A DNA stretch of 55,046 nt from Clostridia bacterium (GCA_017646825.1 JAGCLT010000045.1:1-55046); one strand, 5' to 3'. Positions 25,002-53,312 are shown, counted from the stretch's first letter. Notes: generated from the letters alone by a model not told the origin. Translations and numbers: made by a program.

Positions 25002-25271
25002 TTGAAACACAAAAAAATCTACAATGACGGCAAATATGTTCCTCAAAGAATGTGCATATCCTGCAGAAGTGTTTTGCCGAAAGAACAACTTTTGAGAGTT
25101 GCAAAAATGAAAGACGGCACAGTTGAAGTAGCGGACAAAGGCGGAAGAGGTGTATATGTCTGCAACAATCAGGACTGCATTTTAAAACTAAAGAAATCAA
25201 ACGGATTGTCACGGGGCCTCAAAACTAATGTTCCCGATGAAATATATGAGGAGTGCAGTAATGTTAGATAA
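25002..25271 (+). CDS. ylxR: YlxR/RnpM family (DUF448) RNA-binding protein
   Basis: PQRMCISCRSV.PKEQLLRV...GRGVYVC motif. The TTG start lies directly after the nusA stop. Confidence 0.85.
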   Translation: MKHKKIYNDGKYVPQRMCISCRSVLPKEQLLRVAKMKDGTVEVADKGGRGVYVCNNQDCILKLKKSNGLSRGLKTNVPDEIYEECSNVR

Positions 25272-25569
25272 TAAAGTGTTAGGATACTTAGGCCTTGCAA
25301 AAAAAGCGGGTCTTTTGGCTGACGGAACAGAAAGCGTGGTAACAAGTGTAAGAGGTAACAAAAGCAAACTTGTAATACTGGCTATTGATGCTTCTCCGTC
25401 AACTGTTAAAAAAGTTACCGACAAGTGCAGTTATTATAAGGTTAAACTGGTAACTGCAGGTACAATGTCCGTTTTGGGAAACGCATTGGGACGCGAACTT
25501 ACGGCGTGCGTTTCGGTTAATGATGAAAAATTTGCAGAAGTAATTGGTAAGTTTGTAACAACAAACTGA
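25261..25569 (+). CDS. ylxQ: L7Ae/L30e-family k-turn-binding protein (YlxQ type)
   Basis: MLDNKVLGYLGLAKKAGLLADGTESV...KLVILAIDASPST. The position between ylxR and infB is conserved. The ORF track starts at 25228. Confidence 0.8.
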   Translation: MLDNKVLGYLGLAKKAGLLADGTESVVTSVRGNKSKLVILAIDASPSTVKKVTDKCSYYKVKLVTAGTMSVLGNALGRELTACVSVNDEKFAEVIGKFVTTN

Positions 25570-34952: not shown

Positions 34953-36318
34953 GGTTAATGCAAAACTTGACCCCCAGTTTGCACCGTTGTCAGTTGTGTG
35001 CAGAGATATGAGGGAAGCAACAAAGGATCAGGGACAGGACATTATCATTGCAATCGAAAGAAACAAAGGTTACACAGTTACATACAAAACACGTGTTTTT
35101 GTTGACGGTACAGGACGCGACGAAGATAACTTTAAATTTATAGAAAGAATGACAAAAGCCCTTTTATGGGTTGCAGGCGGTTACAAAATTTACATTGCAG
35201 GAAGCGAAGTAATCGGTAACAAAATTAAAGATGCATTTAAAGACAAAGGCACACGTGATTTTGATGTTCACTTTATGGAAAAAGTATATGAGAAACCTTT
35301 TGAAGTAATAGTTTGCAAATTGGAAGATGCACCAAAGGACAAATCTGCCGCTGCACCTATCGGCAGACATTTAGACGGTTGCAGAATCGGTTTTGACGCA
35401 GGGGGAAGTGACAGAAAAGTAAGTGCTGTTGTTAACGGCGAGAGCGTATTTTCTGAAGAAGTTGTATGGTTTCCCAAAATTAACGAAGACCCCGACTACC
35501 ATTATCAGGGTATTTTAGATGCTATGAAAACTGCTGCATCATATATGCCGAGAGTTGACGCTATCGGCGTATCAAGTGCTGGTGTATATGTTGACAACAG
35601 AATTATGGTTGCTTCTCTTTTCTTAAAGGTTAACGAAGATGACTTTGAAAAGAAAGTTAAAAATATGTACCTTGACGTTGCAAAAGAAATCGGTGAAAAC
35701 ATCCCCGTAGAAGTTGCAAATGATGGTGACGTTACAGCCTTAGCTGGTGCTATGGACTTAAACGATAATGCAGTTTTGGGTGTTGCTATGGGTACATCTG
35801 AAGCAGGCGGATATGTTGACCCTGAGGGTAACATCACAGGCTGGCTTAATGAACTTGCATTTGTTCCTGTTGACTTCTGCGAAAACGCAATGGTTGACGA
35901 ATGGTCAGGGGATTACGGTTGCGGTGTTAAATACTTCTCACAAGACGGTGTTATTAAACTTGCGCCATTTGCAGGAATAGAACTTGACGAAAATTTGTCA
36001 CCTGCTGAAAAACTTAAGGTTGTTCAAGGTCTTATGGAAAAAGGTGACCAGAGAGCTGCAGATATTTATGACACAATCGGTGCGTACTTTGGCTACGCTA
36101 TTGCATTCTACACAGAATTCTATTATATTAAGCACGTTTTGATTATGGGACGCGTTACATCTGGTGAAGGTGGAACAATACTTCTTTCAAGAGCTCAGGA
36201 AGTTCTTGACAAAGAATTCCCTGAACTTGCAAAGAAAATTCAGCTTCATATTCCTGACGAAAGTTCAAGAAGAGTCGGACAGTCAGTTGCAGCAGCAAGT
36301 TTACCTGAAATTAAATAA
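34942..36318 (+). CDS. ASKHA/ROK-like sugar kinase with a ~150 aa N-terminal extension (putative N-acetylhexosamine kinase)
   Basis: 458 aa. It has GFDAGGSDRKV (phosphate-1), ANDGDVTALAG and GVAMGTSEAGGYV, arranged as in ROK kinases. The canonical CxCGxxGC zinc motif is not visible. Confidence 0.6.
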   Translation: MNLKVNAKLDPQFAPLSVVCRDMREATKDQGQDIIIAIERNKGYTVTYKTRVFVDGTGRDEDNFKFIERMTKALLWVAGGYKIYIAGSEVIGNKIKDAFKDKGTRDFDVHFMEKVYEKPFEVIVCKLEDAPKDKSAAAPIGRHLDGCRIGFDAGGSDRKVSAVVNGESVFSEEVVWFPKINEDPDYHYQGILDAMKTAASYMPRVDAIGVSSAGVYVDNRIMVASLFLKVNEDDFEKKVKNMYLDVAKEIGENIPVEVANDGDVTALAGAMDLNDNAVLGVAMGTSEAGGYVDPEGNITGWLNELAFVPVDFCENAMVDEWSGDYGCGVKYFSQDGVIKLAPFAGIELDENLSPAEKLKVVQGLMEKGDQRAADIYDTIGAYFGYAIAFYTEFYYIKHVLIMGRVTSGEGGTILLSRAQEVLDKEFPELAKKIQLHIPDESSRRVGQSVAAASLPEIK

Positions 36319-36323
36319 TTATG

Positions 36324-36353
36324 AAAAAAGCCCTGTTTTCAGGGCCTTTCATT
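36324..36353 (+). terminator. Weak terminator-like hairpin after the kinase gene
   Basis: GCCCTG-TTTT-CAGGGC (36330-36345) is flanked by an A-run and CTTTCATT. The T-tract is poor. Confidence 0.4.
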
Positions 36354-36380
36354 GACATTATTTGCATTAAATGGTACAAT
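36352..36380 (+). promoter_or_regulatory. Sigma-A promoter for the GH20-like gene
   Basis: TTGACA (36352-36357), 17-nt spacer, extended -10 TGgTACAAT (36372-36380). Confidence 0.6.
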
Positions 36381-36410
36381 GTTTTCAAATACAAAAAAGG
36401 TGGTTTCGTT

Positions 36411-38858
36411 ATGTTTATAGGTTCATTATTTGATGACACAATAAGCAAGAATGTCACTTACTCTTATTTTCAGAGAGGAACTGACAAGACTTTTAACCCG
36501 ACATCAACAAAAGAAGATTTGAATCTTCCTGTTTACACTAAAGAAAACGGTAATTTGTTTGCAAGAAGACCTGTTTCATGGAACGTAAACAATATGTTGT
36601 TTAATGCTGTTGACCTTAAGGTTAACGTTGGTGAAAAGGCGTTTATTGACCATATTTATTTAAAACAAGGTACAAATGACAGTATCAATCCGTCAACATC
36701 ACATATAAAATCTATTGAAGTTTTCACAATAGTTGACGGTGAATATAAAAAAATCGGTAAATTCAATCCCGAAACAGGAATTAAAGACTGCGATAAACCT
36801 GAAATTACAATTCCTGTTGGTTATTGGTGCGATAATCTTGTAGTAAGATTTAATGCTCACCTTAAAAAATTCCATTTGGATTATATTGATATTTTTGCTG
36901 CATGGGATATGGACGACTATGTATGGCCATTACCTGAAAAATGCGAATTCTTAAAAGACAGAATTCCTTTTTCAAGCATAAATTCAATAGCAGCAACAAC
37001 AGAGGACGAAATTTTTGTTGCAAATTATTTAAACGAAAAATCAGACAACGCTTTTGAAGTCAAGGCAGACGGTAAAATTAAAATTGAAATTGAAGGTGAG
37101 GGCTATGAAGACGGCTTTGTAATTTCAGTTTCAAAAGACAAAGTTTTGTTAAAGGGTAAAAACAGAAGAAGCGTACTTTATGCTGTTGATGCATTCTTGC
37201 AGTTAATAGACGGCGACTCCGTTAAATGTGTTGAAATCGACCATACTTCATTTAAACCAATGCGCGGTATCCATATGGGACTTCCAAGCAAAAACCAGTA
37301 CGAATTTTTGAAAAACCTTGTAAAAACTGTAATTGTTCCAATGCAGTACAATATGATTTTCTTGGAAATTGCAGGTTCTATGGAATATGACAAATACCCC
37401 GAAATCAATTCTACATACTTAGAGGGTATTGCGGACTGGCGTGCAGGAAAACGTACAAGACCTACTCACGCAGGTATCACAAGTTATGATGTATGGACAA
37501 AAGCAGAAGTGAGAGAATTCTGTGAATTTATGGAAAGTTACGGCATTGAAGTTATTCCTGAAGTTCAGTGTTTTGCACATGTTCAGTACATAACAAGTGC
37601 ACATCCTGAAATGGCGGAAATCCACGCCCCAGATGTTGAGCCGGATAAAGATTTCCCCGGTTTTAACATTGGTGACCCTGGTCCCGGTAAATTTGAATAT
37701 CATGCAATGTGTCCTAATCATCCAAAATATTATGAAATGATGTTCAATATAATTGACGAAGTTATTGAAGCAGTCCAGCCTAAGAGATTTATACACATGG
37801 GACACGACGAAGTATTCCCCATGGGTGTTTGCGAAAGATGTAAAAACATTCCTAAATCAGAAATTTTTACAACAGAAGTAAACAAATTAAATGCTTACAT
37901 AAAGAGCAAAGGTTACAATATGATGATTTGGGGCGACCTTATCCAGAAAGTGTTCTACAGTGCTTCAAATGCAGTTACTACTGTTGACAAGGATATTATT
38001 ATGCTTGACTTCGTGTGGTATTATAATATGGATAAAGATATTGAAGATAACTTGTTAAAGCACGGTTTCCAGGTTATGGTAGGTAACTTATATTCAAGTA
38101 CATACCCAAGATTTGAAACGAGAATAAGAAAACCTGGTATGCTTGGGGGCGAAGTGTCCTGCTGGATTGATACTTGTGAAGAATACTGGGGCTTCTACGG
38201 AAAAATCTATGACTTTATGTACACTGCTACAATACTTAACAACACAAGTTACGACCACAATTTCAGACTTACTTACAATGAACTTATTAAGCCGATAATC
38301 AAAAAAGCAAGAATTAAACTTGCAAAATTAGGCGAAATCGTAAACGAAACAAAAGTTGACATTAAAGGGGAATTTGGCAACATTCCTTATGACATAAGAG
38401 GACTTGTTGACTATGACGGAGCAGTAGTTGCTGACTACAACGACAGAGAAAAAACTGTTGCAATAAACGGCAAGGGCAGACTTATTTCTTTCGTTCACGC
38501 AACAAAAGATTTCTACAAACGTATTCCGTGGCAAGATCCTTATGCTGTCGGTGAATACGAAATTTGCTACGAAGACGGCACATCTTATGTAAAGACTTTA
38601 GGCTATGCGAAAAACATTTTCACATATCGCAGTACTTATGCTGAGCCTGTACTTGGCGTATATTCACATCAAGGATATATAGGAACATACTTTACATTCC
38701 CGGAGAACGGCAAAACCTATGACGGTGACGAATACACATTAGGAAAATATATTATTAAAAATCCTAATCCCGACAAGGTTATTAAAGAAATCAAAATTAA
38801 ACAAAACGGAGAATCAGATGCTAACATAATAGTATTTGATATTGGTTTAATTGACTAA
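36411..38858 (+). CDS. Large cytoplasmic glycoside hydrolase, GH20-like (putative beta-N-acetylhexosaminidase)
   Basis: About 815 aa from ATG 36411 (AAGGTGG upstream). The central TIM-barrel-like region has RGIHMG... and HMGHDEV, which resembles the GH20 H-x-G-x-D-E catalytic motif. No signal peptide is visible. Neighbouring nagA supports an amino-sugar role. The ORF-track start at 36321 lies inside the upstream hairpin and promoter. Confidence 0.5.
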   Translation: MFIGSLFDDTISKNVTYSYFQRGTDKTFNPTSTKEDLNLPVYTKENGNLFARRPVSWNVNNMLFNAVDLKVNVGEKAFIDHIYLKQGTNDSINPSTSHIKSIEVFTIVDGEYKKIGKFNPETGIKDCDKPEITIPVGYWCDNLVVRFNAHLKKFHLDYIDIFAAWDMDDYVWPLPEKCEFLKDRIPFSSINSIAATTEDEIFVANYLNEKSDNAFEVKADGKIKIEIEGEGYEDGFVISVSKDKVLLKGKNRRSVLYAVDAFLQLIDGDSVKCVEIDHTSFKPMRGIHMGLPSKNQYEFLKNLVKTVIVPMQYNMIFLEIAGSMEYDKYPEINSTYLEGIADWRAGKRTRPTHAGITSYDVWTKAEVREFCEFMESYGIEVIPEVQCFAHVQYITSAHPEMAEIHAPDVEPDKDFPGFNIGDPGPGKFEYHAMCPNHPKYYEMMFNIIDEVIEAVQPKRFIHMGHDEVFPMGVCERCKNIPKSEIFTTEVNKLNAYIKSKGYNMMIWGDLIQKVFYSASNAVTTVDKDIIMLDFVWYYNMDKDIEDNLLKHGFQVMVGNLYSSTYPRFETRIRKPGMLGGEVSCWIDTCEEYWGFYGKIYDFMYTATILNNTSYDHNFRLTYNELIKPIIKKARIKLAKLGEIVNETKVDIKGEFGNIPYDIRGLVDYDGAVVADYNDREKTVAINGKGRLISFVHATKDFYKRIPWQDPYAVGEYEICYEDGTSYVKTLGYAKNIFTYRSTYAEPVLGVYSHQGYIGTYFTFPENGKTYDGDEYTLGKYIIKNPNPDKVIKEIKIKQNGESDANIIVFDIGLID

Positions 38859-40695: not shown

Positions 40696-42606
40696 ATGAG
40701 TAATAAAGATTTTAAACCCTATGTACCGGCAGAAAAAATAACTCCGGAATTAACAATTACATCAATCATTATGGGTATACTTTTAGCAGTGGTTTTTGGT
40801 GCGGCAAATGCTTACCTTGGACTTAGAGTAGGTATGACCGTATCTGCTTCAATTCCTGCGGCTGTTATTGCTATGGGCGTTATACGTGGTCTTATGCGTA
40901 AAAACTCAATTTTGGAAAGCAATATAGTACAAACTATCGGTTCTGCAGGTGAATCATTGGCAGCAGGTGCAATTTTCACATTACCTGCATTATTCCTGTG
41001 GGCTGCAGAGGGAAAAACAGCAAAACCTGAATTGCTTGAGATAACCTTAATCGCATTAATAGGCGGTTTGCTTGGCGTTTTCTTTATGGTGCCTTTAAGA
41101 AATGCACTGATTGTTAAAGAACACGGCGTATTGCCTTACCCCGAAGGAACAGCCTGTGCAGAAGTTTTACTGGCAGGGGAAGAAGGCGGTGCAAACGCAT
41201 CTACTGTTTTTGCAGGAATGGGCTTTGCTGCAATATTTAAGTTTATTATTGACGGAATTAAACTTGTATCAGGTGAAATATCTGCAAGTGTAAAAGGTTT
41301 TGCAGGTGAAATTGGTACACAGATTTACCCTGCAGTATTAAGTGTTGGTTATATCTGCGGAGCAAAAATTTCATCATATATGTTTGCCGGCGGTGTTTTA
41401 AGTTGGCTTGTATTGATTCCCGCTATTGTTTTATTTGGCGGAGACATTATTATGTACCCCGGTACTGCACCTATAAGCGAAATGTACGCTTCAGGCGGTG
41501 CAAGTGCAATCTGGAGTTCTTATATAAGATACATTGGTGCAGGTGCATTGGCAGCAGGAGGTATAATAAGTCTTATAAAGTCTTTACCTTTAATTGTAAA
41601 AACTTTTTCAGGTGCAATGAAAAGTATGTCAGGCAACAAGGTTACTGATAACAGCCGTACTTCAAAGGACTTGAATATGAAAGTCGTACTTTTGTCAATT
41701 GCAATTCTTACAGTACTTGTATGGCTTATTCCTGCAATCCCCGTTACATTTTTGGGTGCAGTAATTATAGTTGTATTTGGTTTCTTCTTTGCAACAGTAT
41801 CATCACGTATGGTAGGTTTAGTTGGAAGCAGTAACAACCCCGTATCAGGTATGGCAATTGCTACACTATTAATTGCAACTCTTATTTTAAAACTAACAGG
41901 AGCAACAGGTATTGCAGGTATGTGCAGTGCCATTGCAATCGGCTCTGTAATTTGTATTGTTTCTGCAATTGCAGGTGACACTTCACAAGACTTAAAGACT
42001 GGTTATCTGTTAGGTGCAACACCTAAAAAACAACAAATCGGTGAAATTATCGGTGTTGTTGCAGCGGCTCTTGCTATTGGCGGAACTTTGTATTTATTAG
42101 ACAACGCTTGGGGCTTTGGTACAGACCAACTTGCAGCACCTCAGGCAACACTTATGAAACTAATTATCGAAGGCGTTATGGAAGGAAATCTTCCATGGGG
42201 ACTTGTATTTATCGGCGTATTTATTGCAGTAGTTATTGAAGTGTTGGGTATCCCCGTACTGCCTTTTGCTATCGGTGTTTATTTGCCCGTTCAGTTAAAT
42301 GCTTGTATTATGGTGGGCGGTCTTGTAAGACTGTTACTTGATAAAATGAACAAACCTAAAGAACAAAAAGACAAAATGGTAAATGACGGAATTTTATTCT
42401 GTTCAGGTATGATTGCAGGTGAAGGTTTGGTAGGTATTTTACTTGCACTTCTTGCAGTATTCGGTATTGACAAGGTGTTTGATTTGTCTGCACGATTTGG
42501 TTTGTCACCTGCATTTATGAATATAGGCGGACTTGTACTGTTTGCAATAATAATACTCACTGTTTTAAAGTTCTCACTATGGAGAAAAAACAAAAATGAA
42601 AAATAA
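40696..42606 (+). CDS. OPT-family oligopeptide transporter
   Basis: 636 aa polytopic membrane protein. The N-terminus PELTITSIIMGILLAVVFGAANAYLGLRVGMTVSASIPAAVI is typical of bacterial OPT proteins. Confidence 0.9.
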   Translation: MSNKDFKPYVPAEKITPELTITSIIMGILLAVVFGAANAYLGLRVGMTVSASIPAAVIAMGVIRGLMRKNSILESNIVQTIGSAGESLAAGAIFTLPALFLWAAEGKTAKPELLEITLIALIGGLLGVFFMVPLRNALIVKEHGVLPYPEGTACAEVLLAGEEGGANASTVFAGMGFAAIFKFIIDGIKLVSGEISASVKGFAGEIGTQIYPAVLSVGYICGAKISSYMFAGGVLSWLVLIPAIVLFGGDIIMYPGTAPISEMYASGGASAIWSSYIRYIGAGALAAGGIISLIKSLPLIVKTFSGAMKSMSGNKVTDNSRTSKDLNMKVVLLSIAILTVLVWLIPAIPVTFLGAVIIVVFGFFFATVSSRMVGLVGSSNNPVSGMAIATLLIATLILKLTGATGIAGMCSAIAIGSVICIVSAIAGDTSQDLKTGYLLGATPKKQQIGEIIGVVAAALAIGGTLYLLDNAWGFGTDQLAAPQATLMKLIIEGVMEGNLPWGLVFIGVFIAVVIEVLGIPVLPFAIGVYLPVQLNACIMVGGLVRLLLDKMNKPKEQKDKMVNDGILFCSGMIAGEGLVGILLALLAVFGIDKVFDLSARFGLSPAFMNIGGLVLFAIIILTVLKFSLWRKNKNEK

Positions 42607-42931
42607 TGACAATTATTTGGAAAAGGTGCCCAAAAAGGCACAGCACATTTCCTGGTCAGTAAAAGATGATAAAGTAACATTGGAAATTGAAAACAAGGGA
42701 GTTTTTAACAGAATAGCCCAGGTGTTATTTAAAAAACCCAAAATCAGTTACGTTCATCTTGACGAAATGGGCAGTTTTTTGTGGCCGTTAATTGACGGCG
42801 AAAAAAATCTTATTGATTTGGGAAAATATGTTGAAATCCAGTTTGGGGACAAGGCACAGCCTTTGTATCCCAGACTTGCAAAATATTTTCAGATACTTGA
42901 CAGTTACAAATTTATAAGTTGGAATGAGTAG
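42596..42931 (+). CDS. PqqD-family (RRE-like) small protein
   Basis: 111 aa. The C-terminal half LDEMGSFLWPLIDGEKNLIDLGKYVEIQFGDKAQPLYPRLAKYFQILDSYKFISW follows the PqqD pattern. It overlaps the OPT gene stop by 11 nt. Confidence 0.5.
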   Translation: MKNNDNYLEKVPKKAQHISWSVKDDKVTLEIENKGVFNRIAQVLFKKPKISYVHLDEMGSFLWPLIDGEKNLIDLGKYVEIQFGDKAQPLYPRLAKYFQILDSYKFISWNE

Positions 42932-43883
42932 TACTATGAAAACTGTTTTTATTATCAATAAAAAGGCTGGTCAGAGGAAAGAAATTGAAAAGTTAATACG
43001 GAAAGTTCCCGAAACTGCCGAAGTGTATCTTACCAAAGCCAAAGGCGATGCAACACGTTTTATTAAAGAGTATTGCGAAAATTACGGTCCTGCAAGGTTT
43101 ATAGCCTGTGGGGGAGACGGTACAATAAACGAGGTTATAAACGGAGTTGTGAACTGTGACGGTGCAGAAGCAGGTGCAGTTCCTGTCGGTACCGGCAACG
43201 ACTTTGTGAGAAATTTTCCTGATTGTGATTTTTTTGACACCTCATTACAGATGTCTTGTGAAACTGAATCTGTTGACGCTATTTTCTACACTTCATACTT
43301 TCAGGGTGAAGAAAAATGCGGGTACGGTATTAATATGTTTAACATCGGCTTTGACTGTAATGTGGCAGACAAAAAAGAACAGATAAGTTATATCTGGGGA
43401 AAACTTGCCTATTTTGTTTCAATCTTTATCAATCTTATTGCTAAAAAAGGTGCGGATGTCAAAATTGAAATTGACGGTGAAATCATCCACAACGGCAGGT
43501 TGTTGCTTACATCTATGGCGAACGGTTGTTACTGCGGAGGCGGAATAAAAAGCAATCCCGCATCTGATATAAAAGACGGTTTAATCAATATAAATATAAT
43601 TAAAAATCTTTCCCGTATGCGGTTTATTTCATTATTGCCGAAATATATGAAAGGAACGCACACTGATTTAAAGAATATTGAAAAATATATTATATCAAAA
43701 AAGTGTAAAGAGATTATAGTTACGCCCCTTAACGGCAAAATGAATGTTTGTGTTGACGGGGAGATAATCAGTACACAAAAAATAAAGCTTGAGATAAAAC
43801 CAAAAGCATTTAAATTTGTAGTTCCAAAAAGGAAGGAGCACATACAGTATGACACGAAAACAAGCGAGAGACTTAGCGTTTAA
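42924..43883 (+). CDS. Diacylglycerol/lipid kinase family protein (YegS/BmrU type)
   Basis: 319 aa with the GGDGTINEV motif and GTGNDF. An alternative ATG lies at 42936. Confidence 0.8.
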   Translation: MSSTMKTVFIINKKAGQRKEIEKLIRKVPETAEVYLTKAKGDATRFIKEYCENYGPARFIACGGDGTINEVINGVVNCDGAEAGAVPVGTGNDFVRNFPDCDFFDTSLQMSCETESVDAIFYTSYFQGEEKCGYGINMFNIGFDCNVADKKEQISYIWGKLAYFVSIFINLIAKKGADVKIEIDGEIIHNGRLLLTSMANGCYCGGGIKSNPASDIKDGLININIIKNLSRMRFISLLPKYMKGTHTDLKNIEKYIISKKCKEIIVTPLNGKMNVCVDGEIISTQKIKLEIKPKAFKFVVPKRKEHIQYDTKTSERLSV

Positions 43884-44250
43884 ACTGCTATATCAGGCAG
43901 ATATGCAAAAAGAAACGGTTGAGGAAATTTTAAACATCTACAACTCACAAAAAGAATTAACTGATGAAAACGCAAAAAAATACATAGTTAATGCGATTTT
44001 TGGAGTTGAAATGAATTTAAAAGAAATAGACGATGAGATTTCAAAATATTCAAAAGACTGGTCTATTGACAGACTTTCAAAAATAACTCTTGCTGCACTA
44101 AGACTTGGAATATTTGAAATTAAGTATTGCGAGGATATACCAGATACCGTTGCAGCAAACGAAGCAGTTTCTCTTGTTAAAACCTATGAAGATGAAAAAA
44201 ATGCAGGTTTCGTTAACGGTATTCTGGCTTCTGTTATAGGGAGGAATTAA
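43849..44250 (+). CDS. nusB: Transcription antitermination factor NusB
   Basis: MTRKQARDLAFKLLYQ..., RLSKITLAALRLGIFE and NEAV.L.K. Confidence 0.92.
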   Translation: MTRKQARDLAFKLLYQADMQKETVEEILNIYNSQKELTDENAKKYIVNAIFGVEMNLKEIDDEISKYSKDWSIDRLSKITLAALRLGIFEIKYCEDIPDTVAANEAVSLVKTYEDEKNAGFVNGILASVIGRN

Positions 44251-44251
44251 A

Positions 44252-45427
44252 TTGACAGTTACAGTCAGTGCCCTTAATAAATACATTAAATCACTAATTG
44301 AAAATGATTTGAGTCTTATAAATATTTCTGTGAAAGGCGAACTGTCTAATTTTAAACGCCATTCTTCTGGACATTGTTATATGACTTTAAAAGACGAAAA
44401 TTCGGCTATTGCCGCAGTAATGTTTCGCGGAAGTGCCGATAAACTTCGTTTTCAGCCTGAAAACGGTATGAAAGTTATTGCAACAGGGCGTATATCTGTT
44501 TATGAACGTGACGGGCGATATCAGATTTATATTGACAGTATGCAGCCTGACGGTATTGGTGATTTGCACATTGCCTTTGAACAGTTAAAGGAGAAACTTC
44601 AAAGCGAGGGGTATTTTGACCAGTCACGGAAAAAACCGCTTCCGAAGTTTCCTAAAACTGTAGGCGTAGTGACATCTCCTACAGGGGCAGCTGTCCGTGA
44701 TATTGTAAACGTTATTTCAAGACGTTATCCTTTATGTGAGGTTTTGATTTGTCCCGTACTTGTGCAGGGAGAAAACGCTGCAAATCAGATTGCAAACGCT
44801 ATAGGATATATTAATCAGAATTCTCTTGCAGATGTTATTATAGTGGGCAGAGGGGGAGGCTCTCTTGAAGATTTATGGGCATTTAACGAATTGCCTGTGG
44901 CAATGGCGATTGTAGAGTCAGATATTCCCGTTATCTCTGCAGTAGGTCACGAAACGGACTTTTCAATATCTGATTTTGTTGCGGATTTACGTGCCCCAAC
45001 ACCATCAGCGGCGGCTGAACTTGCCGTTCCGTCTGTAGTGGAACTTTCTGCATCAATAAGCAAAAGTTACGGTTCTATGTTAAATGCGATTTTAAATAAT
45101 ATTAATTACAAACGTTCTGTATTATCACGCTTTGCAGTTAAGAGCCCTATGGATTATGTCCAGCAAAACAGAATAAGGCTTGACAACGCTGAAAAGCATC
45201 TTATAAATGCAGTTACGGCAAAATACAGCGAAAAGGCGAATAGTTTTTCTGTAAGCGTGGCAAAACTTAATTCCCTAAATCCTTTATCTGTTTTAACCAG
45301 AGGTTATGCGGTTGCATCGGGAGAAAAAGGAATAATTAAGTCGGTATCCGACATAAGTTCAGGAGACGTAATAGATTTAAGGCTATGTGACGGAAGCGCA
45401 AAATGCACGGTTAACGAAAGGGGATAA
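44252..45427 (+). CDS. xseA: Exodeoxyribonuclease VII large subunit
   Basis: SALNKYIKSLIE..., SGHCYMTLKD, GRGGGSLEDLW.FN and GHETDF. The TTG start follows GGGAGG. Confidence 0.93.
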   Translation: MTVTVSALNKYIKSLIENDLSLINISVKGELSNFKRHSSGHCYMTLKDENSAIAAVMFRGSADKLRFQPENGMKVIATGRISVYERDGRYQIYIDSMQPDGIGDLHIAFEQLKEKLQSEGYFDQSRKKPLPKFPKTVGVVTSPTGAAVRDIVNVISRRYPLCEVLICPVLVQGENAANQIANAIGYINQNSLADVIIVGRGGGSLEDLWAFNELPVAMAIVESDIPVISAVGHETDFSISDFVADLRAPTPSAAAELAVPSVVELSASISKSYGSMLNAILNNINYKRSVLSRFAVKSPMDYVQQNRIRLDNAEKHLINAVTAKYSEKANSFSVSVAKLNSLNPLSVLTRGYAVASGEKGIIKSVSDISSGDVIDLRLCDGSAKCTVNERG

Positions 45428-45429
45428 TT

Positions 45430-45651
45430 ATGGCTGATTTTGAAAAATCTATCAAAGAACTTGATGAAATAGTAAAAAAATTAGAGCAGGGAGACTTGCC
45501 TTTAGACGAAATGCTTGAACTTTTTGAAAAGGGTGTGGCGTTGTCTTCTGCATGTAACAAACTCCTTGACGAAGCGGAAAAGAAAATAAACATTCTTGTT
45601 AAAAAAGACGGCGAGATTGAAAAACAGGAATTTAAGGGATTAGATGAATAA
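45430..45651 (+). CDS. xseB: Exodeoxyribonuclease VII small subunit
   Basis: 73 aa. FEKSIKELDEIVKKLEQGDLPLDEMLELFEKGV.L...C. Confidence 0.9.
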   Translation: MADFEKSIKELDEIVKKLEQGDLPLDEMLELFEKGVALSSACNKLLDEAEKKINILVKKDGEIEKQEFKGLDE

Positions 45652-46508
45652 TGGATTTTTTAAATCAATTAAAAACTGATACTAAAATTGTTGAAGACTG
45701 GCTTTTTGAACTTTCACCCAAAGGTGACGGTTATCATAGCATAATTTTTGAAAGCGCCAATTATTCAATAAGTAACGGCGGAAAAAGAATAAGACCGATA
45801 CTTGCAATGGAAGTGTGTAAACTGTTTGGCGGAGACCTAGAAAATGTTAAACATTTTGCCTGTGCGTTAGAGTTTATTCACACATACTCATTAATTCACG
45901 ACGATTTGCCCTGTATGGACAATGACGATTTAAGGCGTGGAAAACCTACCAATCACAAGGTTTACGGTGATGCTATAGCGGTACTTGCAGGAGACGGTCT
46001 TTTAACTTATGCTTTTGAAACAGTTTTAAAATCACCTTGCCATAAAAGAGCAGAGGCAGGGCTTTGCCTTGCAAAACTGTCAGGTTTTGACGGCATGGTA
46101 GGCGGTCAGGTAATTGACATTAAAGGTGCAACGGACAAAGAAATGCTTATAGATTTACACAAAAGAAAAACCGGGGCGTTAATTTGTGCAGGTGCATACC
46201 TTGGTGCACTGTCTGCCGATGCAGCTCAAAAAGATATAGACAATGTAACACAGTTTGCTGAAAATCTTGGCCTTGCTTTTCAGATTAAAGACGATTTGTT
46301 AGACGTTTTAGGTGACGAAAAAACTCTTGGCAAACCGGTTGGAAGTGACATGGACAAACAAACATTCGTTGATTTTTACGGCATTGACAAAGCAACAGAA
46401 AAACTTAATGAAATAAGTGAAAAAGCAAAAGACATAATTTCCTGTTACGGAGATAAAAGTAAATTTTTAACAGAACTTACTGATTATTTAATTAACAGAA
46501 ATTATTGA
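45651..46508 (+). CDS. ispA: Farnesyl diphosphate synthase (polyprenyl synthetase)
   Basis: 285 aa. First DDxxD is LIHDDLPCMDNDDLRRG; second is FQIKDDLLD. Confidence 0.9.
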   Translation: MDFLNQLKTDTKIVEDWLFELSPKGDGYHSIIFESANYSISNGGKRIRPILAMEVCKLFGGDLENVKHFACALEFIHTYSLIHDDLPCMDNDDLRRGKPTNHKVYGDAIAVLAGDGLLTYAFETVLKSPCHKRAEAGLCLAKLSGFDGMVGGQVIDIKGATDKEMLIDLHKRKTGALICAGAYLGALSADAAQKDIDNVTQFAENLGLAFQIKDDLLDVLGDEKTLGKPVGSDMDKQTFVDFYGIDKATEKLNEISEKAKDIISCYGDKSKFLTELTDYLINRNY

Positions 46509-46510
46509 TA

Positions 46511-46539
46511 TAGACATTAAATATTTAATATGGTAAAAT
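46511..46539 (+). promoter_or_regulatory. Candidate dedicated promoter for the large ncRNA
   Basis: TAGACA (46511-46516), 17-nt spacer, extended -10 TGgTAAAAT (46531-46539). This would start transcription about at the 5' arm of the closing helix (46546). Confidence 0.5.
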
Positions 46540-46545
46540 AATATT

Positions 46546-47150
46546 ACAGTGGTGCAGTATCCTAGTCATATCCTGTAATTCCTAAGACGGGCCTAAAAAT
46601 CCGTAAAAGGGCACATCGATGAAGCTTGTGGTGTTTGCTTTCGACGCCCAGTCGGGGGCATATGCTGGAAGAAAGGACGTGGGGCGATCCACAATGGCAT
46701 GTGGGCGTTGACCCCTAATTCCGTGGAGACCTGATATTGTGCTTCAACATTACAGTTACGACATCTTCTGAGAAGTACGAGTCAGGATGAAACCTACTTT
46801 GCGGTGCGAAAGCGCTGTGGGTAGTGTAGCCTGCCGTGAGTGGAGACGAGTGGATAACAGAACAGACCGATTAGCGGTTGGCCGACTGCTTTTCGGTTAT
46901 AGCTGTTTGAAACCGTATCTGCAAAAGAGGCTAAGAATTATTTGGAATGTGGAGGAAAACTCCTAGGCTGTTTGAAATACAGGCGTACAATGGATTTCAG
47001 TGCAAACTAAGTGGTAATCCGCCAGCACCTATGGTAACAAGGTGACGCAAAACATAATGGGGAACCCCCTTTTCGGCGACGATCAGGTTGTTTTACGGAG
47101 AAATTCGGGCGGACCTAAGTTGCAAAGTTTACGTTGTACGCCACCACTGT
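46546..47150 (+). ncRNA. ole: OLE (ornate, large, extremophilic) RNA
   Basis: The ~605 nt span has no ORF of 60 aa or more in any frame. It is markedly more G+C-rich than its flanks: by hand count, lines 46621-46680 and 46801-46860 are 55% and 60% G+C, against 30% for 47221-47280. The terminal closing helix pairs ACAGTGGTG 46546-46554 with CACCACTGT 47142-47150. There are many local hairpins, for example a C-GAAA-G tetraloop stem at 46802-46817 and GGAG-GAAAA-CTCC at 46951-46963. The synteny nusB-xseA-xseB-ispA-RNA-small membrane protein-dxs-tlyA-nadK-argR-recN is the published genomic context of OLE RNA. Confidence 0.8.
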
Positions 47151-47175
47151 ATTTATTTTAATTAGAGGTATTTTC

Positions 47176-47748
47176 GTGAAAAACAAAAAGAAAAGAAGAA
47201 TAAAAATTAAAAATAATTCAACTGTAAAAAACGGCGGTTCCAAATGGGTAATAATTATAGTTATTCTGTCGTTTTTTATAAGTGTTTCTATGGACATATT
47301 ATCGTCGGCATTAATTCCGAAAGCGGATATTTTTACTGCACTTTTAATTTTAATTGTACTTATTTTTCTTGGAATTGTGTTTGATATTGTGGGCGTGGCT
47401 GTTGCCACTGCTGATGAAACGCCCTTTCATTCAATGGCTGCTCGTAAAGTAAAGGGCGCAACACAATCTATCTGGCTAATAAGAAACGCTGAAAAAGTTT
47501 CTAATATTTGTAATGACGTTATTGGCGATACTGTGGGTATCATAAGCGGTGCTGCAACGGCGGTTATTATTACCAAAATTATAAATGTTTACAATGTTGA
47601 CGAAATAGTACTTTCCTTATTGCTCACAGGTTTTGTTGCGTCCCTTACTATAGGCGGAAAGGCGTTGGGGAAAGGGTTCGCTATATCCAATGCAAACAGT
47701 ATTATTTACAGCGTTGCAAGAGTTATCAGTATTTTTAAGAAAAAATAA
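47176..47748 (+). CDS. oapA: OLE-associated membrane protein OapA
   Basis: About 190 aa from GTG 47176 (AGAGG 7 nt upstream). It has a basic N-terminus (KNKKKRRIKIK) and several hydrophobic helices. It lies immediately 3' of the RNA and 5' of dxs, as described for oapA. The ORF-track start at 47134 would lie inside the RNA closing helix. Confidence 0.75.
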   Translation: MKNKKKRRIKIKNNSTVKNGGSKWVIIIVILSFFISVSMDILSSALIPKADIFTALLILIVLIFLGIVFDIVGVAVATADETPFHSMAARKVKGATQSIWLIRNAEKVSNICNDVIGDTVGIISGAATAVIITKIINVYNVDEIVLSLLLTGFVASLTIGGKALGKGFAISNANSIIYSVARVISIFKKK

Positions 47749-47762
47749 AAAGAGTGAAAACT

Positions 47763-49568
47763 ATGACTGATTTTGAAAATATAAATGAATTATCATACGA
47801 AAAGCTTGATATTCTCGCAGGTGAAATACGACAAGACCTTTTAAATATTGTTTCAAAAAACGGCGGGCATCTTGCGTCAAACCTTGGTGCTGTTGAACTT
47901 ACTCTTGCATTACATAAGAGTTATAACCCGGGTAATGATAAAATAATATGGGACGTAGGGCACCAGAGTTATGTTCATAAAATGCTTACAGGCAGAAATC
48001 TTGAAAATTTAAGAACTTTCGGTGGAGTAAGTGGTTTTACAAGAACTTCCGAAAGCGACGCGGACTGTTATGATTCCGGTCACAGTAGCACCTCTATTTC
48101 TACAGCATTAGGATATGCGTATGCAAGGGATTTAAAAGGAGACAACTACAATGTAGTTGCAGTAATCGGTGACGGTGCAATGACTGGTGGTCTTGCATTT
48201 GAAGCCCTTAATAATGTTTCGAGATTAAAATCAAACGTTACTATAGTTTTGAATGACAACGAAATGTCTATATCAAAAAATGTAGGCGGTATGTCAAAGT
48301 ATTTAAGTAAAATAAGAACAGGCAAGTTTTATCACAATACAAAAAAACGTGTTAAAGACCGCTTTGGTAATACATCTTTTGGAAAAGGTTTAAAGCATAT
48401 TAAAGACACAATTAAATTTATGTTTTTAAATGATAATCTGTTTGAAATGCTTGGTATAACAAGTATTGGTCCTGTTGATGGTCACAACATCAGGGAGTTA
48501 ACAGAGGCTTTCGATATGGCTAAAAACATTGACGCCCCTGTTCTCGTACACGTTATAACAAAAAAAGGTGCAGGATACCCGTTTGCCGAACAAAACCCAA
48601 GCAAATTCCACGGAATCGGCAAGTTTGATGTTAAAACAGGAGAAGTTTTAAACAATGATTTATCTTGTGAAAAACCATCAAAAGTGTTTGGTGAAACACT
48701 TACACAACTTGCAGAACTTAACGATAAAATTGTGGCTATTACTGCCGCTATGCCTGACGGTACAGGTCTTAAGGAGTTTTCAAAAAAATACAAAGACAGA
48801 TTTTATGACGTTGGAATTGCAGAGGGACACGCTGTTACCTTTGCAGGAGGTCTTGCAAGAGGAGGTTTTACTCCTGTAGTTGCAGTGTATTCCAGTTTTA
48901 TGCAACGTGCTTACGATAATATTGTTCACGATGTTGCAATGCGTAATCTTCACGTTGTATTTGCAATAGACAGAGCAGGTCTTGTGGGAGAAGACGGAGA
49001 GTCACACCATGGGCTGCTTGATATGGCATATTTTTTGTCTATACCTAATGTTGCGGTTTTGTCACCGTGTAGTAATGAAGTTTTAAAACAGATGATACAG
49101 TTTGCGGTTAATGATTATAGCGGACCTGTTGCGATAAGGTATTCCCGCTCAACCCTTGATTGTGAAAAGTATGATGATTTTGTTTTTGGTAAAGGGTGCG
49201 TTATCCGCGAAGGAAAAGATATTACTGTAGTAACTTCAGGAAGTTGTGTTAAAAAGGTTACAGATGCTGTAAAAATCGCAGATGTTGATGCTGAAATAAT
49301 CGATATAAGAACAATTAAGCCAATAGACAAAGAGATGCTTATAAAATCATACAGTAAAACAGGGAAAATAATAACAGTCGAAGACGGTGTTGTATATGGC
49401 GGTCTTGGCTCTGTTGTAGAGTCTGTTATTGGCAGTAAAGTAACTAAAGTGGGATATGACAACGACACACTTATTACTCATGGAAGTATTAATGATTTGG
49501 AGAAACATTATAAGACAGATGCTAAAAGCATTGCAGATATTATTTTGAAAGAGGTTAACGGAAATTGA
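47763..49568 (+). CDS. dxs: 1-deoxy-D-xylulose-5-phosphate synthase
   Basis: About 600 aa. Motifs are GGHLASNLG, DVGHQSY.HK, GDGAMTGG and the GEDG.SHHG region. An alternative GTG lies at 47754. Confidence 0.95.
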   Translation: MTDFENINELSYEKLDILAGEIRQDLLNIVSKNGGHLASNLGAVELTLALHKSYNPGNDKIIWDVGHQSYVHKMLTGRNLENLRTFGGVSGFTRTSESDADCYDSGHSSTSISTALGYAYARDLKGDNYNVVAVIGDGAMTGGLAFEALNNVSRLKSNVTIVLNDNEMSISKNVGGMSKYLSKIRTGKFYHNTKKRVKDRFGNTSFGKGLKHIKDTIKFMFLNDNLFEMLGITSIGPVDGHNIRELTEAFDMAKNIDAPVLVHVITKKGAGYPFAEQNPSKFHGIGKFDVKTGEVLNNDLSCEKPSKVFGETLTQLAELNDKIVAITAAMPDGTGLKEFSKKYKDRFYDVGIAEGHAVTFAGGLARGGFTPVVAVYSSFMQRAYDNIVHDVAMRNLHVVFAIDRAGLVGEDGESHHGLLDMAYFLSIPNVAVLSPCSNEVLKQMIQFAVNDYSGPVAIRYSRSTLDCEKYDDFVFGKGCVIREGKDITVVTSGSCVKKVTDAVKIADVDAEIIDIRTIKPIDKEMLIKSYSKTGKIITVEDGVVYGGLGSVVESVIGSKVTKVGYDNDTLITHGSINDLEKHYKTDAKSIADIILKEVNGN

Positions 49569-50356
49569 AAACTCGTCTTGATGTATATTTAGTTGAGCGC
49601 GGATACGCTACAAGCAGAGAAAGAGCAAAAAGTATTATAATGTCAGGCTCTGTATTTGTAAACAATCAAAGAAGCGACAAAGCAGGAGATATGATTTCTG
49701 ATGACGCTGTTGTAGAAGTTCGTGGCGGAGAACTCAAATACGTAAGCCGTGGGGGGCTGAAACTTGAAAAAGCAATAGCGGAGTTTGGCATTTCTCTTGA
49801 AGGTAAAATATGTATGGACGTCGGTGCATCTACAGGAGGTTTTACTGACTGTATGCTTCAAAACGGTGCCAAAAAAGTATATTCTGTTGACGTTGGTTAC
49901 GGCCAGTTGGCGTGGAAATTAAGAAGTGACGAAAGAGTAACTAATTTAGAAAGAACAAATATAAGATATGTAACCAGAGAACAGGTCCCCGATGAGTTGG
50001 ATTTTTCATCAATAGACGTTGCCTTTATTTCCTTGAAACTTGTTTTGCCTGTAGTTAAGGAACTTTTAAAGAATAACGGAACAGGTGTAGCACTGATAAA
50101 ACCCCAGTTCGAGGCAGGAAGAGAAAAAGTAGGTAAAAAAGGCGTTGTACGTGAGCCCGGGACACATATTGAAGTAATCAATAATGTCTTGGAATTCACA
50201 AGAGATATGGGGCTTAATGTATCAGCGGTTACATTCTCACCCATTCGTGGTCCTGAGGGAAACATAGAGTACTTAATGTATTTTTCCAAAAATGGTGAAG
50301 ACAACGAAATAGATGTTGAAAAAATTGTAGAGATTTCTCATGAGGTGGCTATATGA
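49565..50356 (+). CDS. tlyA: TlyA/RrmJ-family rRNA 2'-O-methyltransferase (S4 domain plus FtsJ fold)
   Basis: MKTRLDVYLVERGYATSRERAK..., DVGASTGGFTDC and VDVGYGQL. The TTG start overlaps the dxs stop. Confidence 0.9.
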   Translation: MKTRLDVYLVERGYATSRERAKSIIMSGSVFVNNQRSDKAGDMISDDAVVEVRGGELKYVSRGGLKLEKAIAEFGISLEGKICMDVGASTGGFTDCMLQNGAKKVYSVDVGYGQLAWKLRSDERVTNLERTNIRYVTREQVPDELDFSSIDVAFISLKLVLPVVKELLKNNGTGVALIKPQFEAGREKVGKKGVVREPGTHIEVINNVLEFTRDMGLNVSAVTFSPIRGPEGNIEYLMYFSKNGEDNEIDVEKIVEISHEVAI

Positions 50357-51183
50357 GTAACAAAGTAAAAGAAATTGCCATAATTCCAAATTTAACTAAA
50401 GACAGCGACTTTTCTGCAACAAATAAAATTGCAGAGTTGGCGCACATAAACGGTGTAAGTGCACTTATTGACAGTGAGTATGCAGATAAGGTGAAGTTTG
50501 CAAACGGTGCATCTTACGAGGAGCTTAACAATGCACAGTTAATTGTGGTTTTAGGCGGTGACGGAACTCTTTTGTCTGCCGTTCACAGATTTTCAGATAC
50601 CAAAGCGGCATTTTTGGGAATAAACTACGGCAATCTTGGTTTTTTAACAGAAATCGAAAAAGATATGCCTGAACAATTTGTTGAAATATTAAATGGCCAT
50701 TACGGAGTTTCGGAACACTTAACGATAGAAGTCAGTTTGAACGGAAAAACATATACTGCTTTAAACGATGCAACATTGCACCGTGACGCGGTATCAAGTA
50801 TGATAAAATTCAGTGTGGCAGTAGGGGGAGAACATCTGTATTCCAGTTCTGCAGACGGAATAATAGTCTCCACACCTACAGGTTCAACGGCCTATTCTTT
50901 ATCAGCAGGCGGGCCTATTGTGGACCCCACTATTGATGCGGTTATTTTGTCCCTTATTTGTCCGCACGACTTAAACAGCCGTTCGGTAATTGTACCAACT
51001 GGTAAGGAAATTGCCCTTGTTGTTACAAACGCCGTGGGTAATTCTGCAGTAAATATTGACGGAAGAATTGCTGTTAATGTAAAAAACGGCGACGTAATTA
51101 CAATTAATGCAGGAAAAAAAGTTAAACTGGTAAGATTATCAGACAGTTTCTTTTACAAAAGACTGAAACAAAAATTGTTTTAA
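50353..51183 (+). CDS. nadK: NAD kinase
   Basis: 276 aa. Motifs are VLGGDGTLL, GNLGFL and STPTGSTAYSLSAGGP. Confidence 0.92.
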   Translation: MSNKVKEIAIIPNLTKDSDFSATNKIAELAHINGVSALIDSEYADKVKFANGASYEELNNAQLIVVLGGDGTLLSAVHRFSDTKAAFLGINYGNLGFLTEIEKDMPEQFVEILNGHYGVSEHLTIEVSLNGKTYTALNDATLHRDAVSSMIKFSVAVGGEHLYSSSADGIIVSTPTGSTAYSLSAGGPIVDPTIDAVILSLICPHDLNSRSVIVPTGKEIALVVTNAVGNSAVNIDGRIAVNVKNGDVITINAGKKVKLVRLSDSFFYKRLKQKLF

Positions 51184-51194
51184 GAGGTGCAGTA

Positions 51195-51650
51195 ATGTCA
51201 AGAAAAGAAAGACAAAGATTAATTATTGAATTAATTGAGAAAAAACCAATTGTAAGGCAGGAGGATATTGCTGAATATATTATAAGTTGCGGTATTCCTG
51301 TAACTCAGGCTACAATTTCCCGTGACATTCATAATCTTGGACTTGTAAAACAAAACATTGATGGGGTTTTACGCTACGTTGCACCTAAAAATATAGTAAG
51401 CGTTGAAACAAATCAAAGAATGAGTGATGTTTTGGTTAATAGTATTTTAACTGTTGACAGAGCAAAAAACATCGTTGTAATTAAAACGTTAAGCGGTATG
51501 GCTCAGGCGGCTGCCGCAGCCCTTGACAATCTGCACAAATCAACTGAAATTGTTGGAAGTATTGCAGGTGACGATACAATTATGGTAATTATGAGAACAG
51601 ATGAAGATGCAGAAAATGTAGTCGCAAAATTTACCAGTCTTAAAAAGTAA
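51195..51650 (+). CDS. argR: Arginine repressor
   Basis: 151 aa. It has the winged helix ATISRDI..LGLVK and C-terminal GTIAGDDTI-like SIAGDDTIMVI. Confidence 0.92.
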   Translation: MSRKERQRLIIELIEKKPIVRQEDIAEYIISCGIPVTQATISRDIHNLGLVKQNIDGVLRYVAPKNIVSVETNQRMSDVLVNSILTVDRAKNIVVIKTLSGMAQAAAAALDNLHKSTEIVGSIAGDDTIMVIMRTDEDAENVVAKFTSLKK

Positions 51651-51662: not shown

Positions 51663-53312
51663 ATGCTTTTGAATTTGCATATTAAAAATGTTGCAGTTAT
51701 AAAGCAACTTAATATTGAATTTAAAGAAGGCTTTTCTGCCCTGACTGGTGAAACAGGTGCGGGAAAGTCTATAGTCATTGATGCTCTTAATATGGCTCTT
51801 GGCGAACGAATTAATAAAGATATAATAAGACACGGCGAGGACAAGGCCTTATCAGAAGCAGTTTTTCAGATTGACAATGATGAAACCTATGGAGTCTTAG
51901 AAGAACTTGGTATAGAGCATGAGGACGGAATGGTTATTGTTTCTCGTGAAATAAATTCTGACGGCAAAAGTGCCTGCAGAATTAACGGACGTATTACAAC
52001 TGCTTCGGCGCTCAGAGACCTTGCAAAAACAGTTCTAAATATACACGGTCAGCACGATAATCAGTATTTATTAAATCAAAGCAAACATATAATGTTTTTA
52101 GACAGTTACGGCAAACTGGAACTGAACCAGTACAAAAAACTGTATGACAAAAGAAAAGAAATACTTAGAGAAATTGAATTAAACAGTATTGACAACGAAG
52201 AAAAACAAATGAAAACTGATATGCTAACATATCAGGTAAACGAACTACAAAAAGCAAACCTTGTTCCCGGGATGGAAGAAAAACTGGAGACAAGACAGAA
52301 TTATTTAAGCGAAATCAGTAATATTTCAAGCGTTGTGGGAAATGCAAAATACAAATTATCAGAGGCAGACAAAAGTGTTTATGATGTACTTTCCGGAATA
52401 TCATCTTCATTTGACAGTATTTCACAGTATGACGAAACATTAAAGGAATTGTCGGAACGATTAAACAGCGTAACCTTAGAGGTGGAGGATATTGCTTATA
52501 CTGTAGCGTCATTTGCCGATGGTATAGTGGAAGACACAGGTGAACTTGATGAAATACAGGGCAATTTAAGTACCATTTACGAATTAAAAAGAAAGTACAA
52601 GAAGAGTTCGGTTGAGGAACTTATGATGTACTATTCAAATATTAAACAGCAGCTTGACGACATCGAGCAAAACGATGAAATAATAAATAAGTTAAATGAA
52701 CAACTTAAAGAGACGGAAGAACAACTTTCAGTATGTGCAGATTATATTACAGAAAAAAGAAAAAGAAGCGGCAAAGCCCTTGAGGAACATATTTGCCGTG
52801 AATTGGAACAACTGGATATGCCTTATTGCAAATTTGTTGTTAACATTACAGATACGGACTTTAACAGTTTTGGTAAAGACGATGTTGAGTTTTTGATTTC
52901 TGCAAACCCAGGGGAGGAACCTAAACCTCTTAATAAAATTGCGTCAGGCGGTGAAATGTCCCGTATTATGCTTGCGATTAAGTCCATTTTGTCAGATGCC
53001 GATACGGTTAACACTCTTGTTTTTGACGAAATTGATGCAGGAGTAAGCGGAAGAGCTGCAGACAGGATTGCAGAAAAATTGTCAAAACTTGCAAGTAATA
53101 AGCAGGTACTTTGTATAACCCACCTTGCGCAAATTGCAAGCAAAGCAAAAAATCATTATCTGGTTGAGAAAAATGTGACGGATGATAAAACAAACACAAC
53201 AGTTAAGCTTCTCGAGGGTAATGACAGGGTATGTGAGATAGCACGTATTATGGGCGGTCATAACGTAACAGAAAACACGTTAAATGCTGCACGGGAATTA
53301 ATAGGAGAATAA
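51663..53312 (+). CDS. recN: DNA repair protein RecN
   Basis: 549 aa. It has Walker A GETGAGKS, a coiled-coil middle, the signature ASGGEMSR, and Walker B LVFDEIDAG. Confidence 0.95.
   Translation: MLLNLHIKNVAVIKQLNIEFKEGFSALTGETGAGKSIVIDALNMALGERINKDIIRHGEDKALSEAVFQIDNDETYGVLEELGIEHEDGMVIVSREINSDGKSACRINGRITTASALRDLAKTVLNIHGQHDNQYLLNQSKHIMFLDSYGKLELNQYKKLYDKRKEILREIELNSIDNEEKQMKTDMLTYQVNELQKANLVPGMEEKLETRQNYLSEISNISSVVGNAKYKLSEADKSVYDVLSGISSSFDSISQYDETLKELSERLNSVTLEVEDIAYTVASFADGIVEDTGELDEIQGNLSTIYELKRKYKKSSVEELMMYYSNIKQQLDDIEQNDEIINKLNEQLKETEEQLSVCADYITEKRKRSGKALEEHICRELEQLDMPYCKFVVNITDTDFNSFGKDDVEFLISANPGEEPKPLNKIASGGEMSRIMLAIKSILSDADTVNTLVFDEIDAGVSGRAADRIAEKLSKLASNKQVLCITHLAQIASKAKNHYLVEKNVTDDKTNTTVKLLEGNDRVCEIARIMGGHNVTENTLNAARELIGE

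Follow-up and report, generated by a model that had tools for sequence, protein, structure and literature searches.

The region described here lies within a 55,046-nucleotide (nt) stretch of DNA from a Clostridia bacterium (GCA_017646825.1, JAGCLT010000045.1:1-55046), referred to below as the window. Between ispA, which encodes farnesyl diphosphate (FPP) synthase (45651-46508, + strand, stop codon at 46506-08; NF045485, 317 bits against a cut-off of 275), and a gene for a 190-residue predicted membrane protein, oapA, the window carries a gene-free stretch. An earlier note, made from the sequence alone, had assigned this stretch to the OLE (ornate, large, extremophilic) class of structured RNAs rather than to a new class. 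We are practically certain that it is an ole gene, placed on the + strand between ispA and oapA, whose product is a full-length OLE RNA of about 607 nt. This identification rests on a full-length match to RF01071, the Rfam OLE model, on the retention of near-invariant columns, on covarying helices and on the lack of a conserved reading frame.

We ran the covariance-model check that the earlier note had proposed, and RF01071 matched 46533-47163 on the + strand with 465.8 bits, against a gathering score of 50 (E = 1.3e-133). The alignment was full length, covering model positions 1-616 of 616, and was obtained on the + strand only; no other Rfam family reached its gathering score anywhere in the window. 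Eleven other OLE loci, submitted to the same Rfam test, scored between 356 and 538 bits. Taken from one strand of the terminal helix P1 to the other, the RNA occupies 46545-47151 (+, 607 nt), and the Rfam match includes short flanks on both sides. The match, the covariation and the gene order described below all support placing the element in the OLE class.

As the earlier note had stated, 46509-47133 contains no open reading frame (ORF) of 60 or more codons: the longest ORF lying fully inside it has 59 codons (46787-46966, +), and a spurious antisense ORF (47115-47408, - strand) overlaps only its last 19 nt. The same note had described a jump in G+C content to 55-60%. The jump is real, but the figure was overstated, since 46546-47150 has 48.3% G+C, compared with 37.4% in the whole window and 35-37% in ispA and oapA, and only three 60-nt lines reach 55-58%. 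Of all 605-nt segments in the 55-kb window, 46546-47150 nevertheless has the highest G+C content (their mean is 0.374, with a standard deviation of 0.027). Folding of the + strand was better than that of its shuffles (z = -2.94, with none of 20 shuffles as good), and that of the - strand was not (z = -1.19).

For comparison with relatives, a one-genome-per-species scan for the invariant 19-mer AAAGGGCACATCGATGAAG returned at least 120 loci, from Bacilli and Clostridia; 94 of the listed loci, together with the window, gave 95 OLE sequences complete at both ends. The earlier note had paired ACAGTGGTG (46546-54) with CACCACTGT (47142-50) as the closing helix, and these segments are exact reverse complements at those positions. 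The helix is one pair longer than noted, with 10 base pairs (bp) formed by the P1 5' strand UACAGUGGUG (46545-46554, +) and the P1 3' strand CACCACUGUA (47142-47151, +). A 9-bp inverted repeat within 700 nt is not rare by itself, and an inverted-repeat scan of 46500-47200 yielded three pairs of at least 9 bp. We consider P1 to be real because it covaries in the 95 loci, and not because of the length of the repeat. Across registers -4 to +4, 91.2% of positions are paired in these loci, against 75.8% (maximum 79.6%) in 500 shuffles; here and below, pairing counts are raw and uncorrected for phylogeny, and the set of loci is biased by its recruitment. When the partner strand is slid, pairing is 31-58%. 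Most P1 positions show several pair types, such as G-C 58, A-U 30 and G-U 6 at register 0, G-C 44 and A-U 37 at register -1, and four pair types at register -3. Thus, the covariation in the closing helix that the earlier note had expected from an alignment of relatives is seen.

The RNA contains two further long-range pairings. The 3' domain (46982-47142, +) is closed by GGCGUACAA (46982-90) and UUGUACGCC (47134-42), a helix that is 94.9% paired in the 95 loci with many pair types. We examined P1 and this 3'-domain helix as chance inverted repeats and rejected that explanation, as both covary. The second pairing joins a 5' strand made of CAG, a UAU bulge and CCUAG (46555-46565, +) to the 3' strand CUAGGCUG (CUAGG-CUG; 46963-46970, +), and each strand contains a CUAG palindrome (46562-65 and 46963-66). 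In the 95 sequences, pairing of this CAG/CCUAG helix reaches 99.9%, and the helix lies outside the Rfam structure line. Its one covarying position is the pair 46561-46967, which is U-A in 84 sequences, C-G in 8 (the window included) and U-G in 3. We infer that this helix is the published P2 region and an OapA site; the OapA sites are described as two palindromes in or near P2 and P4a (PMC12265935).

Another perfect 9-bp inverted repeat, UCCGUAAAA (46600-08) with UUUUACGGA (47091-99), would bring the 3' strand of P14 together with the P4 hairpin on the latter's 3' side. Over the 94 relatives, pairing is present in 52.6% of cells only, and the repeat is probably a chance or lineage-specific pairing.

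Identity between the window OLE and the other 94, which come from the matches listed, does not exceed 68%. In these relatives, 193 columns are at least 97% conserved, and the window keeps 186 of them (96.4%). About a quarter of the nucleotides are near-invariant in the 94 relatives, as is characteristic of the class, in a set that was recruited by the 19-mer. Five of the seven departures from near-invariant bases fall in compensated pairs: A47004-U47121 stands in place of G-C, as do A47099-U47105 in the P15-like mini-helix and C47022-G47109 in P12.2, the last being unique to the window among the 95 sequences.

The exact IspA protein was found on five metagenome contigs and nowhere else, and four of these (L121-L124) cover the locus at 99.4-99.9% identity when compared over 43849-49568 of the window. 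These four contigs show 65 mismatches in 20.8 kb, only one of which falls in the 4 x 631 nt of OLE, where about eight would be expected. The OLE is identical in three of the contigs, and the fourth carries a single substitution, C47020 to U, which turns a C-G pair into U-G and keeps the pairing. Among strains, therefore, the OLE is more conserved than the flanking protein-coding DNA and is under purifying selection; one mismatch where about eight were expected indicates stronger constraint than on its neighbours.

The 19-mer also matched a Streptomyces contig and a TA06 contig, both without an OLE by Rfam, and these matches are due to chance. Full OLE genes (503 and 448 bits) were found in assemblies that bear the names Pseudomonas sp. 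ISL-84 and Succinivibrio sp., and either these labels are wrong or the bins are contaminated, in all probability (group L034, L118, L100, L079). The most similar OLEs and proteins, among the matches listed, come from metagenome-assembled genomes (MAGs) of Clostridia or Bacillota and from Caloramator.

The internal hairpins carry the sequence elements through which OLE RNAs dimerise and bind proteins. The P4 hairpin (46587-46604, +) has the A-rich loop CCUAAAAA (46592-99), aligned to the consensus CUAAAAAuCC, and in the published structures this loop forms an A-A dimer bridge (PMC12286853, PMC12265935). It is followed by the J4a/5 kink-turn (k-turn) segment AUCGAUGAAG (46615-46624, +), which is identical to the Rfam consensus; within it, we infer that C46617 is the equivalent of B. 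halodurans C85. The k-turn is bound by OapC (PMC9723947). The P5/P5.1 hairpin (46625-46671, +) exposes the loop GCCCA (46646-50), and the P6.1 hairpin (46689-46704, +) the loop AUGGCA (46694-99); the P5.1 and P6.1 loops kiss in the dimer (PMC12265935). The long P9 arm (46833-46931, +) rises from a base helix GCCGU/GAGGC to a tip loop with the palindrome GGCC (46880-83), present in 88 of the 95 sequences; the L9.3 GGCC kissing loop is another dimer bridge (PMC12286853). All four dimerisation sequence elements are therefore present in the window, namely the A-rich P4 loop, GCCCA, AUGGCA and the P9 tip GGCC, and the RNA is predicted to form a dimer.

The 3' domain contains a P12.2-like helix (47018-23/47108-13, +), the P13 hairpin (47026-44, +) with a bulged A47031 and a GUAA tetraloop (47034-37), the P14.1 GCGA tetraloop (47076-79, +) and a P15-like mini-helix (47098-99/47105-06, +). 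The P12.2, P13 and P15-like helices are paired in the window RNA and covary in the 95 loci. The P13 loop is of the GNRA type in 94 of the 95 sequences, and OapB requires a GNRA loop with a bulge 2 nt upstream (PMC7936274). Both predicted protein sites, the OapC-type k-turn segment and the OapB-type P13 GNRA/bulge motif, are thus intact.

The gene immediately downstream of the RNA, oapA (47164-47748, +), has a ribosome-binding site AGAGG (47164-68) and a GTG start at 47176, 25 nt after P1, which opens an ORF of 190 codons (47176-47748); independent gene calls on the four metagenome contigs also gave 190 residues. Searches with tblastn found homologues in 103 of the at least 120 loci listed, all 103 from other species, with 37-60% identity over residues 73-190 and E values down to 2e-40; every one of them is encoded on the same strand as OLE and directly after it, at 599-992 nt from the anchor. 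Four hydrophobic segments can be seen in the protein (approximately residues 25-43, 52-74, 115-138 and 141-161), and its N-terminus is basic, with 10 K/R and no D/E in the first 24 residues. No NCBIfam match was found for it. OapA is a small membrane protein with four predicted transmembrane helices and clustered, conserved basic residues. On the strength of the homologues directly after OLE in 103 loci, the four hydrophobic segments and the basic N-terminus, we identify the predicted protein as OapA. In three other loci (L005, L094 and L115), the OLE is full length (500-538 bits) and is followed by 1.4 kb of sequence or more, and tblastn found no OapA homologue in their 8-kb blocks; oapA may be displaced or very divergent there.

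We then consider how the RNA would be transcribed. A promoter-like site (46511-46539, +) comprises a -35 hexamer TAGACA (46511-16), a 17-nt spacer, TG (46531-32) and a -10 hexamer TAAAAT (46534-39), reading TGgTAAAAT. With 10 of 12 hexamer matches in addition to the TG, it is the best + strand site in 43500-49800, and its predicted transcription start lies near A46546, the first base of the helix given in the earlier note. Across the 95 OLE loci, -10-like boxes, often of the extended form TGnTATAAT, cluster 15-18 nt upstream of the first G of GUGGUG, with 20, 14, 9 and 9 boxes at these offsets and about 1-3 per offset farther upstream. The cluster agrees with the published finding that B. halodurans ole has its own promoter in addition to operon transcription (PMC9723947). 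The -10 box in the window is unusually close to this G, with an offset of 9 nt where the mode is 15-18 nt. We searched for a terminator-like site between OLE and oapA and found none; an internal candidate at 46873-90 was rejected, as it is the P9 tip hairpin. Since no terminator follows OLE, transcription would continue into oapA-dxs. Transcripts of OLE thus probably arise in two ways, by initiation at about 46546 from an extended -10 promoter of its own and by operon read-through.

The surrounding genes are those of a typical OLE locus. The earlier note had read the order as nusB-xseA-xseB-ispA-OLE-[small membrane protein]-dxs-tlyA-nadK-argR-recN, and NCBIfam confirmed it: nusB (43849-44250), xseA (44252-45427) and xseB (45430-45651) precede ispA, and dxs (47754-49568, +; TIGR00204, 670 bits), tlyA (49565-50356), nadK (50353-51183), argR (51195-51650) and recN (51663-53312) follow oapA. 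Homologues of ispA were found in 97 of the 120 8-kb OLE blocks listed, those of dxs in 86, of xseB in 70 and of tlyA in 65. The hosts of OLE RNAs are described as anaerobic or extremophilic Bacillota, and the window also encodes a ferredoxin oxidoreductase, which fits an anaerobe.

We looked for oapB, oapC and mpfA among the window ORFs scanned, which lie downstream of position 14700, and found no candidate there. The sole L7Ae-family ORF in the scanned window (25228-25569; PF01248) is preceded by a ylxR-like ORF (25002-25271), and nusA and infB flank both. We rejected it as OapC/YbxF, since its nusA-ylxR-infB position is typical of YlxQ. YlxQ is a paralogue of OapC/YbxF reported to be unable to substitute for it.

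Elsewhere in the window, a 458-residue ORF without a Pfam match (34942-36318) lies between genes for an amidohydrolase (33810-34952) and a GH20-domain protein (36321-38858). A PqqD-like ORF (42596-42931; 111 residues, 26 bits) is located just upstream of nusB and overlaps the end of an OPT transporter gene and the start of a DAGK/YegS-type lipid kinase gene.

Compared with the full-length OLEs of Halalkalibacterium halodurans, Clostridium acetobutylicum and C. botulinum, the window RNA shares the length, helices, loops, k-turn and ispA-oapA position. It differs from them in a longer P7 loop (13 nt longer than in the RF01071 model), in a G.G and a G.A mismatch, in the flipped pair 47022-47109 and in the closer -10 box. 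Its host is an uncultured organism, probably a gut or rumen anaerobe (a habitat taken from contig names only), and not a classical extremophile. OLE variants 1 (TANB77 clade) and 2 (RF39 clade) come from uncultured Bacillota of gut type for which there are only metagenomes, and the source of the window, too, is uncultured and represented by metagenomes alone; in variant 1, P7-P9 are shortened and the OapB site is often missing, and variant 2 is without P7 and P8 (PMC11332333). In the window RNA, all of P7, P8 and the long P9 can be aligned and the GNRA/bulge site of P13 is kept, so that it is of the full-length form. Both truncated variants were rejected for this RNA, because P7, P8, P9 and the OapB site are all present. 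Large structured non-coding RNAs such as GOLLD, ROOL and raiA resemble OLE in being homo-oligomers or possible homo-oligomers (PMC12286853). In contrast to a nanocage, OLE is a membrane-associated dimer, and GOLLD, ROOL and raiA have no match in the window at the Rfam gathering score.

On the protein side, OapA is distantly related to the CNNM domain of MpfA-type Mg2+ transporters (PMC12265935, PMC11332333), and it co-occurs with OLE and anticorrelates with MpfA (PMC11332333). Set beside MpfA, CorB and CorC, the window protein is without CBS or CorC domains and has a weak CNNM match. The earlier note had called the function of OLE unresolved, a statement that needs qualifying, as cryo-electron microscopy (cryo-EM) dimer structures and a transmembrane-RNA model have appeared since 2025 (PMC12286853, PMC12265935).

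By analogy with these systems, our model suggests that the RNA would fold as two domains joined by the long-range helices P1 and P2. Two such RNAs may dimerise through the A-rich P4 loop, through kissing of the P5.1 (GCCCA) and P6.1 (AUGGCA) loops, and through the GGCC at the P9 tip. The four-helix OapA would bind the CUAG palindromes and hold the RNA at the membrane. OapA itself would be a distant CNNM-domain relative of MpfA-type Mg2+ exporters without their cytoplasmic CBS/CorC domains, and the RNA could then serve this putative transporter of divalent cations as its module for sensing and regulation. Such regulation would adjust how well the cell tolerates Mg2+, short-chain alcohols, cold and poor carbon sources. 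We hold this transporter-regulator mechanism tentatively, giving it roughly an even chance at best.

Several observations weigh against the picture of a full-length OLE RNA regulating OapA, and we consider them together with the explanations they could favour. The comparison set is biased, as every locus in it was recruited by an exact 19-mer. The window OLE is second-lowest of the 95 sequences for retained invariant positions, and two near-invariant Watson-Crick pairs are replaced by uncompensated purine-purine mismatches: G46628.G46668 at the base of P5, where 92 of the 95 sequences have C-G and only the window has G.G, and G46836.A46928 at the base of P9, where 93 of the 95 have U-A. The promoter scan as a whole was not enriched over shuffles (20 sites found against 17.8 expected), and because of this the promoter-like site stands as a consensus match only, and as a lead. 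The PF01595 (CNNM, DUF21) match of the downstream protein, over residues 57-188, is weak (E = 2.8e-4, 21 bits, below the 28.4-bit cut-off). We know of no species in which the biochemical function of OLE has been proven, and in the source organism expression, processing, dimerisation, OapA binding and a phenotype are all predicted. That OapA transports metals is likewise hypothetical (PMC12265935). The low ranking and the two mismatches, along with an Rfam score in the lower half of the 356-538 range, are what one would expect of a decaying, non-functional OLE copy. We nonetheless consider decay extremely improbable: the great majority of invariant positions are kept and most departures are compensated, all dimer loops, protein-site motifs and oapA are intact, and the strain comparison found far fewer changes in OLE than expected, with pairing preserved. 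The G.G and G.A mismatches are the same in all four near-identical metagenome contigs. That the region encodes a small protein, for instance from the ATG-initiated 59-codon ORF on the + strand, has a probability close to nil. Stops occur in the frame aligned to the start of this ORF in 94 of 94 relatives, the length differs by a non-multiple of 3 in 69 of them, and the conservation is that of base-pair covariation and not codon-like. A protein-coding frame conserved in relatives is what the earlier note thought would refute its reading; we looked for one across the region in the 94 relatives and found none.

Other explanations accept the OLE identity and concern what the RNA does. It could be mainly cis-acting, a long structured 5' leader of the oapA-dxs mRNA rather than a free stable RNA, through which nascent OapA would capture its own transcript at the membrane or downstream expression would be controlled. 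The layout of the locus would suit such a leader, with a promoter-like site directly upstream, no terminator-like site before oapA, an oapA ribosome-binding site that starts 13 nt after P1, and OapA following OLE on the same strand in 103 loci. We regard a mainly cis-acting RNA as very unlikely, given that P1 marks both ends of a compact molecule and covaries, and that the B. halodurans OLE is among the most abundant RNAs other than rRNA and tRNA, binds proteins in trans and is membrane-localised (PMC12265935, PMC9723947); cis and trans roles are, moreover, mutually compatible. Alternatively, the RNA could work by another mechanism, be it as a ribozyme or as an integral-membrane RNA, and mainly serve some purpose other than the regulation of OapA transport; it might, for example, pass on the state of the cell wall or membrane to bS21, ArgR and others (the 'bTOR' hub idea). 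The near-invariance of about a quarter of its nucleotides goes far beyond the needs of protein sites, conserved loops lie away from OapB (PMC7936274), argR is four genes downstream and ArgR is a candidate partner (PMC12265935), and the cryo-EM model places the P3 region across the bilayer. However, no catalytic activity has been reported, and the tightest evolutionary link of OLE is to OapA, with OapA and OLE both anticorrelating with MpfA (PMC11332333). We judge another mechanism of this kind to be rather unlikely, and a weaker candidate than transporter regulation; the evidence from the window does not discriminate between the transporter-regulator and the hub or ribozyme mechanisms.

The peculiarities of this copy could also be taken as the mark of an OLE sub-type, defined by the mismatches in P5 and P9, the flipped P12.2 pair, a transcript start on the first base of P1 and the missing terminator. 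We think this improbable. If it were true, a different conformational switch at P5 and the k-turn and a different set of partners (OapC, bS21) would be expected, and the RNA would be produced and would function as the 5' portion of the oapA transcript.

The locus is a correctly identified known element and not a discovery, and its interest comes from the class and not from this locus. Few bacterial RNAs of unsolved biochemistry are as large and as well conserved as OLE, and recent structures suggest that it may span the membrane. About 2,800 OLE genes have been catalogued (PMC11332333). The window OLE opens no new question, as the standard Rfam model finds it at once, and it is best described as a fairly divergent new member of a well-known class. 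As a divergent full-length OLE, no more than 68% identical to those compared, it combines compensatory changes with two tolerated mismatches, and such a copy could help to refine covariation models of the family and to choose constructs.

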